DNA of 6,421 nt from the IMG/VR virus record IMGVR_UViG_2740892235_000009, one strand, 5' to 3'. Both the position numbers and the translations under genes were made by a program. How positions within the stretch are numbered: position 1 is the stretch's first letter; every line of letters starts with the position of its first letter. The stretch comes from a virus (taxonomy: Duplodnaviria > Heunggongvirae > Uroviricota > Caudoviricetes). Below, one piece after another: positions 354 to 782 of this stretch. The notes beneath the pieces are model-generated. The model was not told where the DNA came from. It worked only from the letters and a program-made list of their open reading frames with translations, and ran no database searches.

Positions 354-782
354 ATGTATTGCCGTGCTGTACCGGTTCTTGTTTTGATATTAGCCAGTCT
401 GACAACTGGCTGCACAAAAGATGTATCGACAAATAATTATGATGCTTCTCTGTATCACTCAGATAAATTAATAAAGTCGCAAAATTTGAGCTCATCGGAA
501 CGTACCCCTGATGCCAGTGAAGAAATCCGGCAGTATGCCATTCAGGTCAGGAAAGCCATAGAAGAACAGTTAAAGGATGCGAGTAAGTATTCAGGAAAAG
601 AGTGTTCACTGAGAATGTATATGGCCCCGAATGGTCTTCTGCTACAGGTTAAAAGAGAAAGCGGTGATCCCGATTTATGTCGTGAAGCGATGAATGCAGT
701 AAAGAATGCTGATATACCATCACCACCGTCTTCAGGAGTATATAAAGCATTTAGAAATGGCGTGCTGGATTTTAAACTCTGA
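354..782 (+). CDS. Lipoprotein with a TolA C-terminal (domain III)-like domain
   Basis: ATG at 354 preceded by GGAG-rich RBS (tggagatggataa). N-terminus MYCRAVPVLVLILASLTTGC is a hydrophobic signal peptide ending in a lipobox-like Cys. C-terminal ~90 aa (EIRQYAIQVRKAIEEQ...YSGKECSLRMYMAPNGLLLQVKRESGDPDLCREAMNAVKNADIPSPPSSGVYKAFRNGVLDFKL) align motif-for-motif with the E. coli TolA C-terminus as I recall it (..YAGQIKSAIES..YAGKTCTLRIKLAPDGMLLDIKPEGGDPALCQAA..AKIPKPPSQAVYEVFKNAPLDFKP). Confidence 0.8.
   Translation: MYCRAVPVLVLILASLTTGCTKDVSTNNYDASLYHSDKLIKSQNLSSSERTPDASEEIRQYAIQVRKAIEEQLKDASKYSGKECSLRMYMAPNGLLLQVKRESGDPDLCREAMNAVKNADIPSPPSSGVYKAFRNGVLDFKL

Follow-up and report, generated by a model that had tools for sequence, protein, structure and literature searches.

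Why should a prophage encode the head of TolA without the rest of the protein? The question is raised by a small gene near the start of the window analysed here, a 6,421-nt stretch of viral DNA (IMG/VR record IMGVR_UViG_2740892235_000009). A preliminary description, made from the sequence letters, took the product to be a prophage-encoded, lipobox-bearing protein of TolA domain III alone and proposed that it acts as a decoy or modulates the host Tol-Pal system. This account of the protein was borne out by Pfam and PDB matches, the context in a twin genome, AlphaFold2 and Foldseek results, and an alignment of homologues. E. coli TolA is 421 aa long (PMC4339652); the prophage protein consists of a lipobox signal peptide, a disordered linker and a complete TolA domain III, and TolA domains I and II are absent (Table 1).

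Table 1 Features in and around the lipoprotein gene, in order of position in the window.
Feature	Position	Strand	Basis and remarks
tRNA-Arg, 3' part, anticodon loop CTTCGAA	1-72	+	Rfam tRNA, 45.1 bits; 5' end outside the window
Sigma-70-like promoter candidate, TTTGCA-18-TATTAT	194-223	+	9/12 consensus matches; 130 nt upstream of the ATG
Shine-Dalgarno sequence GGAG	342-345	+	8 nt 5' of the ATG; read off the sequence
Lipoprotein gene	354-782	+	142-aa ORF; open reading frame list
Signal peptide with lipobox	354-413	+	Residues 1-20, MYCRAVPVLVLILASLTTG/C; pattern match on the P0122 N-terminus
Linker, about 30 residues (21-50)	414-503	+	pLDDT 39-49; predicted disordered
TolA domain III, residues 51-142	504-779	+	Pfam, PDB chain matches, AlphaFold model, Foldseek
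Stop codon TGA	780-782	+	ORF call
11-bp hairpin	781-808	+	Overlaps the stop codon; RNA fold of 776-850, -24.6 kcal/mol, z = -2.4
STnc100-family sRNA copy	890-1102	+	Rfam RF02076, 172 bits; next feature 3' of the gene
Terminator-like hairpin in the STnc100 copy	1072-1091	+	Terminator scan
AraC-family (YdeO/GadX-like) regulator, 241 aa	1479-2204	+	Pfam HTH_18 and HTH_AraC

Residues 52-140 match Pfam PF06519 (TolA_C) at profile positions 7-96 of 96, essentially the whole domain (E = 5.7e-23; 81.4 bits against a gathering cut-off of 25), and residues 54-141 match the E. coli TolA domain III chains 1S62, 3QDP, 2X9A and 1TOL (E about 1e-25), with about 50% identity to E. coli TolA 333-420 across 88 residues. 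All significant database matches of the protein were to TolA or TonB C-terminal domains. The AlphaFold2 model has a pLDDT of 74-93 for residues 51-142, and its secondary structure comprises α1 (52-70), β1 (83-90), β2 (96-104), α2 (106-118), α3 (127-133) and β3 (135-141). The structural comparison suggested in the preliminary description gave TolA III as all of the best PDB hits; 2X9A_B was aligned by Foldseek over 87 columns with an rmsd of 0.8 Å and a TM score of 0.94, and the rmsd of the model to TolA III crystal structures was 0.8-1.9 Å. Cys84 and Cys109 align with TolA Cys363 and Cys388, a pair that is invariant in the homologue alignments, and the β3 sequence VLDFK aligns with TolA 416-420. 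The fold, the Cys pair and the β3 LDFK edge are thus common to the lipoprotein and E. coli TolA domain III (1TOL, 2X9A, 3QDP/3QDR, 1S62), whereas the prophage copy differs in surface changes (K368 to Y, P380 to R and K399 to D), in standing alone in a prophage late region, and in its predicted lipid anchor in the opposite (outer) membrane.

Profiles of full-length TolA were matched at their C-terminal ends only, i.e., TIGR02794 at positions 266-361 of 362 (75.9 bits, passing the cut-off of 59.45) and NF007065 at positions 297-386 of 387 (103 bits, far below the cut-off of 213). RefSeq labels the protein "tolA: cell envelope integrity protein TolA" because the TIGR02794 cut-off is passed, and this name is misleading for a 142-aa prophage lipoprotein, given the absent domains I and II. 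The protein also matches PHROG 5772, a family of unknown function (E = 1.4e-57, profile positions 2-127 of 128), and no PADLOC-DB defence-protein model was matched at E ≤ 0.01.

The N-terminus, MYCRAVPVLVLILASLTTGC, conforms to the pattern of lipoprotein signals, with the layout MYCR-AVPVLVLILAS-LTTG-C (charged n-region, hydrophobic h-region and lipobox), and a PROSITE-like lipobox regular expression was positive for P0122, whose N-terminus is identical. Position -3 is Thr, which is rarer in lipoboxes yet allowed. Nearly every full-length sequence retains Gly19 and Cys20, in the three E. coli subtypes as well as among distant homologues, and the lipobox Cys is also conserved in other Enterobacterales; the mature protein is predicted to begin with Cys20 in lipidated form. 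By the +2 rule of the Lol system, a lipoprotein without Asp at +2 is sorted to the outer membrane, and the Thr at this position predicts that Lol would sort the prophage protein there. The linker is rich in Ser, Thr, Asn and Asp and would tether domain III to the membrane. It is the fastest-evolving part of the protein (dN 0.23-0.45 vs 0.10-0.13 in the domain), still with a dN/dS of 0.28-0.45.

The locus is a lambdoid E. coli prophage, and the gene lies in the cargo slot between the antiterminator gene Q and the holin gene, which is the site of stx genes in related phages. The complete twin locus (NZ_CP028381.1) has the order Q, DNA methylase, tRNA-Ile, tRNA-Arg, lipoprotein, AraC-type regulator, nanS-p esterase, holin, lysozyme, Rz and terminase. 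The phage tRNA that the preliminary description placed beside the gene is real, being matched in Rfam and annotated as tRNA-Arg in a 100% identical complete genome; in the twin locus it is the last of the tRNA-Ile/tRNA-Arg pair downstream of Q and the methylase. ARAGORN missed it in the window because it is truncated by the window edge. Carriage by an Stx2 phage was rejected, as a scaffold gap (N10) separates the Stx B fragment in the window from the gene and complete genomes show the module filling the stx slot of a stx-less sibling prophage.

Across IMG/VR viral loci, Q was found upstream in 64 of 68 and the holin gene downstream in 54 of 56, on the same strand and at a median distance of 804 nt from gene to holin. 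The arrangement holds across the E. coli subtypes and was also seen in another enterobacterial prophage. With the same strand and the Q-holin position in nearly every locus, the gene is certainly transcribed late in lytic growth.

The composition of the gene differs from that of its surroundings (GC 0.42-0.44 vs 0.50-0.57 in the flanks), as is the case for phage accessory-cargo ("moron") genes, and the AraC-type regulator, with NCBIfam YdeO and GadX hits under their cut-offs, belongs to the same AT-rich cargo block. A similar AraC-type regulator is encoded directly upstream of the subtype B gene. Upstream DNA differs between subtypes save for about 40 nt in common with subtype B, and alignment of upstream regions from distant loci revealed no shared promoter. 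The promoter candidate in the window is not above chance, with 3 sites in the scan vs 3.1 expected in shuffles. The hairpin at the stop codon, which has no U-run directly after it and was not called in the terminator scan, is at best a weak terminator. Subtype C prophages carry two paralogues that are only about 30% identical, the second of which also matches PHROG 5772. As consensus matches, a promoter (TTGAGC-18-TATAAT, 10/12, 30 nt upstream of the ATG) and, after the second paralogue, a clean intrinsic terminator bracket this gene pair, in what looks like the usual anatomy of a moron.

Of 5426 complete E. coli genomes, 897 contain homologues, and in 894 of these the match extends over 80% or more of the gene; an exhaustive search yielded about 45 further 50%-identity clusters of small proteins with a lipobox and TolA-III. 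The window's subtype occurs in the LEE-negative STEC lineages O91:H21, O113:H21 and O22:H8. Between subtypes that are 65-72% identical, dN/dS was 0.26-0.39 for the whole gene and 0.12-0.35 for the domain, values that indicate purifying selection. In a crude neighbour-joining tree of TolA-III domains, lipoproteins did not group with their own host's TolA and the Serratia copy was no closer to Serratia TolA, and the idea that the E. coli and Serratia clades arose from repeated host-specific captures of tolA was dropped. Literature searches provided background only, with no published characterisation of a prophage TolA-III lipoprotein family found. The "TolA" remark on EDL933_2012 (PMC11125564) refers to a gene catalogued as encoding a tail fibre protein and not to the prophage TolA-III lipoprotein, the Liberibacter prophage "TolA" is an unrelated 1347-aa protein, and Frazão 2019 mentions neither mEp460 nor TolA and has nothing on the lipoprotein gene.

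A second lipoprotein of related design, with a TonB C-terminal domain, is encoded in the same prophage and was found in 1616 of 5426 E. coli genomes. This protein (phage 21, Stx1a phages and CP-933N; phrog_1267) has in common with the TolA-III lipoprotein a lipobox, a short linker and a transducer head. It differs in its TonB_C domain, its slot after Rz and its PHROGs label of "Rz-like spanin", and is likewise uncharacterised. Some chromosomal lipoproteins, outside prophages, fuse TonB_C and TolA_C.

From these sequence features we tentatively propose that the protein may be a motor-less decoy that competes with host TolA for its ligands, with tolerance to Tol-dependent bacteriocins or filamentous phages as the benefit. 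The disordered tether of about 30 residues would hold a complete TolA domain III at the outer membrane. Domain I (the TolQR-coupled anchor) and domain II (the periplasm-spanning helix) are absent, so proton-motive force cannot be transmitted. The two β-strand edges that are kept correspond to the surfaces at which host TolA contacts TolB, filamentous-phage g3p and group A colicins (through their translocation domains), and may bind the same partners. Such a decoy would sit just beneath the outer membrane, the place at which the polypeptides of colicins and phages make their first appearance. The advantage under selection would most likely be that the prophage-carrying cell tolerates these bacteriocins and phages; at high expression, inhibition of Tol-Pal, with leakiness and vesicles, would be expected as a side effect.

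The ligand-binding residues bear on this proposal. TolB, g3p and colicin N all use the β3 edge of TolA, and proline substitution of D418/K420 in this strand abolishes the binding of g3p-N1 and colicin N (PMC4339652). These two residues are D139 and K141 here, inside the LDFK motif common to TolA, which no full-length sequence in the alignment of the E. coli subtypes has lost. For colicin A, the contacts in TolA are L375-P380, K368, K379 and K396 (PMC3365938). Most of this site is conserved, i.e., L96, L97, K100 and K117 are identical to TolA and V99 is conservative (TolA I378), while Q98, R101 and Y89 differ. TolA K368, the cation-π partner of the critical ColA Tyr58 (PMC3365938), is replaced by Tyr or His in the prophage lipoproteins, which would count against the decoy reading for colicin A. 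The reported affinities for TolA III, about 1-12 µM for colicin N and g3p and about 40 µM for TolB (PMC4339652), would favour a decoy. Counted against it are the chance-level promoter candidate of the window's subtype and the contact of TolB with TolA at the same β3 site, which would make competition for TolB unavoidable. Taken together, the conserved LDFK motif, most of the colicin A site, purifying selection, the TonB-domain lipoprotein and the TonB_C+TolA_C fusions are circumstantially consistent with either a decoy or Tol-Pal modulation.

Several known systems resemble parts of this design. Small phage lipoproteins in the inner leaflet of the outer membrane that close an import route include Cor of phi80, N15 and HK022, the route in this case being one used by phages and colicins. 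Llp of T5 is another small lipoprotein of this kind, which shuts the FhuA import route (bioRxiv 10.64898/2026.03.26.714494). The target of both Llp and Cor is FhuA, a receptor in the outer membrane, whereas the prophage protein is a copy of a periplasmic transducer head and would be a decoy receptor, not a plug. To our knowledge, Llp and Cor are not copies of host domains. Ff g3p would be the mirror image, a ligand that saturates TolA, whereas the prophage protein would be an extra receptor that soaks up ligands; expression of g3p in the host is said to have given colicin tolerance and superinfection resistance in the hands of Boeke, Model and Zinder in 1982. Cells in which TolA III is exported to the periplasm release periplasmic protein (Wan & Baneyx 1998; Levengood-Freyermuth 1993; both as cited in PMC6195910), and the prophage gene resembles a natural version of this isolated, exported and motor-uncoupled domain. 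The laboratory domain has the sequence of host TolA and is overexpressed in soluble form, whereas the prophage protein is predicted to be lipid-tethered and has diverged. Colicin tolerance was reportedly also seen with periplasmic TolA III, by Levengood-Freyermuth in 1993.

The late-operon position upstream of the holin gene counts against a purely lysogenic decoy and suits Tol-Pal modulation in the lytic phase equally well. It is possible, if on the unlikely side, that the protein is an inhibitor produced in large amounts shortly before lysis, from the late transcript antiterminated by Q, and titrates the TolB N-terminus off TolA. A tol-like state would follow, with a leaky, vesiculating outer membrane and blocked septal Pal deposition, aiding envelope breakdown or the release of virions or cargo. 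The strand and the position between Q and holin, repeated in the other enterobacterial prophage, argue for such a late inhibitor, as do the conservation of the β3 site used by TolB, the hypervesiculation of tol mutants and the laboratory release of periplasmic proteins by periplasmic TolA III in the studies cited above. On the other hand, these prophages already have holin, endolysin and Rz spanin genes, and Pal tethering is irrelevant once the cell wall is degraded. The binding of TolB is also weak (the 40 µM given above), and late inhibition leaves unexplained the companion TonB-domain lipoprotein, the chromosomal TonB_C+TolA_C fusions, and the two divergent subtype C paralogues with their promoter/terminator bracket.

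The low GC and the subtype C bracket, both moron features, could instead suggest lysogenic conversion, in which low expression partly dampens Tol-Pal and changes permeability, vesiculation or Rcs, giving general fitness or broad phage resistance without a specific decoy. The acid-stress-type AraC regulator adjoining the gene in subtypes A and B and the many envelope roles of Tol-Pal are in keeping with this explanation, and tol mutants are mucoid via Rcs activation. We nevertheless consider it improbable, as cells with a partial tol phenotype usually pay for it in sensitivity to detergents and bile, which would be a disadvantage in the gut, and the effect is too unspecific to account for the conserved ligand-binding edges.

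Truncated or frameshifted copies (P0019-P0029, P0037 and P0041, with a pseudogene in L003) would fit a passenger that is decaying or neutral, derived from a captured piece of host tolA and without a function of its own. This explanation is very improbable given a dN/dS well under 1 across the divergent subtypes, the wide carriage of near-complete copies among the E. coli genomes, the invariance of both domain cysteines, and the precise addition of a lipobox signal peptide that is conserved in dozens of divergent clusters. That the protein is a genuine TolA replacing or duplicating host TolA in the Tol-Pal machine, as its RefSeq name and its TIGR02794 score above the cut-off would have it, is refuted by its architecture and has next to no likelihood, with C-terminal profile matches only, an NF007065 score far too low, a cleavable lipoprotein signal in place of the inner-membrane anchor, no domain II, and a prophage context rather than the ybgC-tolQRAB-pal operon.

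Returning to the motor-less decoy, which we favour, the TonB-domain companion allows an extension. We know of no role of TonB in outer-membrane integrity or lysis, and for this reason the TonB parallel is easier to explain by the blocking of an import route than by help with lysis. A rather doubtful further step is that lambdoid prophages carry TolA III and TonB_C as a matched pair of lipid-anchored decoys that would render cells refractory to group A and B bacteriocins and to Tol- and Ton-dependent phages, a previously undescribed form of exclusion by receptor mimicry in roughly 15-30% of E. coli genomes. Made late, the pair could also shield the lytic cell against colicins that form pores; without such a shield, depolarisation of the membrane by these colicins would set off the holin too early.

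Colicin production is widespread among gut E. coli, and group A colicins and filamentous phages all need the TolA head. If the decoy reading is true, about one in six E. coli genomes would carry a disconnected TolA head, and prophages would shape susceptibility to bacteriocins and phages in a way unseen by resistance and defence catalogues, which miss the gene because it has no PADLOC model, a PHROG of unknown function and the RefSeq name "TolA". The protein would then also be a natural tool to dissect TolA-TolB force transduction and colicin translocation. The presence of the window's subtype in LEE-negative STEC lineages gives the finding a bearing on the engineered colicins, and possibly other bacteriocins, that have been proposed as anti-STEC therapeutics. 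Should the protein instead be a late Tol-Pal inhibitor, it would add a new accessory step to what is known of phage lysis and the release of vesicles.

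The gene under study encodes a 142-aa protein in which PF06519 (TolA_C) covered residues 52-140, nearly the entire Pfam profile (E = 5.7e-23; 81 bits, cut-off 25). A PDB sequence search returned E. coli TolA domain III chains (1S62, 3QDP, 2X9A, and 1TOL) and recent full-length TolA cryo-EM entries, all at E ~1e-25, with residues 54-141 aligned to TolA 333-420 without gaps at ~50% identity. An AlphaFold2 model built from a 38-sequence alignment had a confident fold for residues 51-142 (pLDDT 74-93) and predicted disorder for residues 1-50. When this model was compared with the PDB using Foldseek, the top ranks were TolA III structures only (best fit, 2X9A_B: rmsd 0.8 Å, 87 columns, target TM 0.94), with Vibrio and Pseudomonas TolA III and TonB C-terminal domains at lower ranks. 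The domain cysteines Cys84 and Cys109, counterparts of TolA Cys363 and Cys388, were invariant in the homologues. Sequence and fold alike identify a bona fide TolA_C domain in this protein.

At the N-terminus, MYCRAVPVLVLILASLTTGC forms a lipoprotein signal peptide: a PROSITE-type lipobox pattern was matched on a fragment with an identical N-terminus, and Gly19 and Cys20 were retained by nearly all full-length homologues. Thr at +2 predicts, under the established Lol sorting rule, delivery to the outer membrane. The preliminary description, a prophage-encoded protein with a lipobox and the TolA-III fold, is thus upheld by the Pfam and PDB matches, the model, and the lambdoid prophage of the twin genome RM10466. 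Absence of a TolA-III fold, which would have refuted that description, is contradicted by the predicted structure.

Both the TolB N-terminus and g3p-N1 bind TolA III at β3 through β-strand augmentation; the site of colicin A is β2, across the sheet (PMC7391070). The β3 substitutions D418P or K420P abolish colicin N and g3p binding, and affinities for TolA III are ~1-12 µM for colicin N and g3p versus ~40 µM for TolB (Ridley & Lakey, PMC4339652). The β3 sequence is VLDFK in the prophage protein and PLDFK in TolA, with D139 and K141 conserved, and LDFK was found in all aligned full-length sequences of the three E. coli subtypes (A, the window's own, B, and C; 65-72% protein identity among them, lipobox in all). 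The colicin A contacts of TolA (L375-P380, K368, K379, K396, and L392; PMC3365938) correspond to L96, L97, Q98, V99, K100, R101, Y89, K100, K117, and M113 and are mostly kept, but there is a substitution at K368, with which the critical ColA Tyr58 pairs. As β3 LDFK and most colicin A contacts are kept, the ligand-binding edges are, at the level of sequence, largely retained.

Several complete E. coli chromosomes matched window positions 1-2700 with 100% identity. The RM10466 lambdoid prophage (L001, the complete twin of the window) encodes RusA, antiterminator Q, two small genes, a DNA methylase, tRNA-Ile, tRNA-Arg, the TolA-III gene, a methylase fragment, an AraC-type regulator, sRNA repeats, a nanS-p esterase, holin, lysozyme, Rz, and terminase, an order repeated in an O91:H21 STEC strain. 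The tRNA neighbor described earlier was recovered here, and the window itself begins within tRNA-Arg. In matched Stx2a phages this DNA methylase and these tRNA genes have stx2 beside them; the window-type module in RM10466 is without stx. The Shiga toxin B fragment of the window lies beyond an N10 gap and therefore says nothing on linkage to the TolA-III gene. Given two N10 joins and gene ends flanking the first, at least three contigs must have been joined to make the window; the repeats 4010-4412/5080-5491 and 5872-6109/6121-6358 reflect paralogous prophage regions at contig ends. Six STnc100 copies in 6.4 kb account for the window's repeated segments and many spurious small ORFs, and a partial copy was also seen 5' of a subtype C gene (L002 ~5700-5850). 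A similar AraC-family gene occurs at 6826-7539 of two other inspected loci (L011/L012); such a gene adjoins the TolA-like gene in two subtypes, on the 3' side in A and on the 5' side in B, and could be its regulator or mere co-travelling cargo. The 92-aa ORF had no Pfam, NCBIfam, or PADLOC match.

Features of the window and of related loci (L001, RM10466 prophage; L002 and L003, subtype C loci; L004 and L005, Serratia loci)
Feature	Position	Strand	Remark
tRNA-Arg	window start		window edge falls inside; Rfam
Promoter-like site, window subtype	194-223		sole site; no better than chance
Ribosome-binding site GGAG	8 nt 5' of ATG		
TolA-III lipoprotein gene	354-782	+	142-aa ORF
STnc100 sRNA copies	890-1102, 2862-3057, 3121-3330, 3392-3590, 3652-3841, 4702-4916	+	Rfam RF02076, 120-172 bits
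AraC-family regulator, YdeO/GadX-like	1479-2204	+	resemblance under family cut-offs
92-aa ORF 3' of AraC gene	2294-2572	+	unannotated in RefSeq twin locus
DUF1737 start of nanS-p esterase	4069-4410		directly before first N10
N10 scaffold joins	4413-4422 and 6110-6119		
Shiga toxin B subunit fragment	4424-4624		C-terminal 67 aa; Pfam SLT_beta, 1.3e-44
TonB-domain lipoprotein	L001 22568-22894		after lysis cassette
Promoter-like site before subtype C gene pair	L002 5942-5971		consensus match only
Second TolA_C lipoprotein of subtype C	L002 6580-6975; L003 9547-9921		
Intrinsic terminator, clean, after second paralogue	L002 7101-7118		just before holin; consensus match only
Serratia homologue, 147 aa	L004/L005 10001-10444		immediately beside icd

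A homologue was present in 897 of 5426 complete E. coli genomes, 94 of them with at least 99% identity to the window gene. At every locus inspected the gene lay between antiterminator and lysis cassette, with varying Q, holin, and lysozyme types. Using marker proteins drawn from annotated loci, we tested this position in 80 IMG/VR viral contigs: of 56 loci whose flanks were long enough, 54 had a same-strand holin downstream (median 804 nt), and the Q antiterminator lay upstream in 64 of 68 (median 1.4 kb). In 42 of 43 viral loci of subtype C, the commonest, a second TolA_C lipoprotein (lipobox FVAGC, ~30% identity to the first) was encoded 157 nt downstream. Beyond E. coli, another enterobacterial prophage had a homologue of 141 aa between Q and holin. 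A Serratia homologue adjoins icd, a classic prophage attachment site; since it sits at a prophage edge in one genome (L006) and is prophage-less in two others, it could be a remnant that has been domesticated. Among 1.8 billion representatives, an exhaustive profile-free search recovered 303 relatives; ~45 of these clusters combined a length of 115-170 aa with signal peptide, lipobox, and TolA_C. The family is phrog_5772 in PHROGs, labelled function unknown, and PADLOC has no model for it.

Given the gene's position, late Q-dependent transcription is certain. Expression in lysogens is no more than plausible. In the window subtype, the hairpin 3' of the stop codon was without a U-tract. In subtype C, TTGAGC-18-TATAAT (10/12, a consensus match only) ends 30 nt before the ATG. 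Phage accessory-cargo genes ("morons") are usually AT-rich; GC was 0.42-0.44 in the gene versus 0.50-0.57 in neighboring phage genes.

The RM10466 prophage also codes for a 108-aa lipoprotein (lipobox LVMGC) whose body is a TonB C-terminal domain (Pfam TonB_C, 5e-15; PDB TonB, 3e-16), and for which the PHROGs label "Rz-like spanin" (phrog_1267) looks doubtful. Of 5426 complete E. coli genomes, 1616 carried a homologue of it, as did phage 21, Stx1a phages, and JLK-2012. Chromosomal lipoproteins of 233-237 aa (P0092, P0094, and P0121; L009 8001-8702) fuse TonB_C-like and TolA_C domains in a non-prophage setting, near the suf operon and a small T6SS Hcp/effector cluster. TonB has no known part in envelope integrity, but group B colicins use it to enter, as do phages including T1 and phi80; import blocking therefore makes most sense of copying both the TolA and the TonB heads.

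Once exported, lipidated, and sorted by Lol, the TolA head would be suspended beneath the outer membrane by a flexible ~30-residue tether, uncoupled from TolQR, and a captured ligand would be held on a dead end. Candidate ligands are porin-threading colicin translocation domains, g3p once the pilus has retracted, and the N-terminus of TolB where a colicin-TolB complex leaves it exposed. Laboratory constructs with periplasmic TolA III reportedly give colicin tolerance. Exporting TolA III to the periplasm also leads to release of periplasmic proteins, according to work cited in PMC6195910, and by analogy the prophage gene resembles such a construct in natural form. The decoy proposed earlier, conferring exclusion or tolerance, is our favored though tentative account of the selected function. 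It is preferred over help in lysis because of the TonB-domain lipoprotein in the same prophage and the chromosomal fusions; the tandem, strongly diverged subtype C paralogues are likewise more in keeping with diversified ligand capture than with mere titration of TolB.

The main rival is a late Tol-Pal inhibitor, whose bulk synthesis shortly before lysis would cause leakiness or vesicles; this fits the gene's constant place within the late transcript, directly 5' of the holin. With the TonB-head copy, the fusions, and the diverged paralogues favoring exclusion, we regard it as less likely than the decoy. The two functions are compatible, and both are possible together. A late-made decoy might, speculatively, shield the lytic cell from pore-forming colicins; left unchecked, these would depolarise the membrane and so trigger the holin prematurely. 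General envelope conversion is improbable.

Frameshifted or truncated copies in some genomes would suit a neutral passenger, a reading made very improbable by dN/dS between subtypes (0.26-0.39 whole gene, 0.12-0.35 domain; dS 0.2-0.7; Nei-Gojobori), from which we conclude that the lipoprotein is under purifying selection. Broken subtype C copies (P0019-P0029, P0037, P0040, P0041, and P0061; L003 9115-9375, one an annotated pseudogene) indicate that the gene is dispensable and sometimes decaying.

That the protein is a true TolA is practically excluded by the missing inner-membrane anchor and long helical domain II, the lipoprotein signal, and the prophage setting; with two of three defining domains and the operon context missing, it is not a TolA. 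NCBIfam full-length TolA models were covered at their C-terminal extremes only (positions 297-386/387 and 266-361/362). The TIGR02794 cut-off was passed on the C-terminal domain alone, hence the RefSeq name "tolA: cell envelope integrity protein TolA", and the other model scored far under its cut-off. PGAP gives this name to WP_000271631.1 and related 142-aa lipoproteins, which could mislead gene-content analyses, e.g., tolA copy counts.

In design the protein resembles Llp (T5) and Cor (phi80, N15), phage outer-membrane lipoproteins that close off a route of entry. Those target the receptor FhuA and are not known to copy host proteins, whereas the prophage protein copies the TolA head. Expression of Ff g3p is the mirror image: there the ligand saturates TolA, and here an extra receptor head is supplied. 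In the open-access full-text literature searched, we found no papers describing or testing phage-encoded TolA- or TonB-domain lipoproteins. We read the protein as a phage lipoprotein built by receptor-domain mimicry, with a probable exclusion or envelope role; the family is common and the hypothesis specific, which is why TolA-III lipoproteins are of interest.
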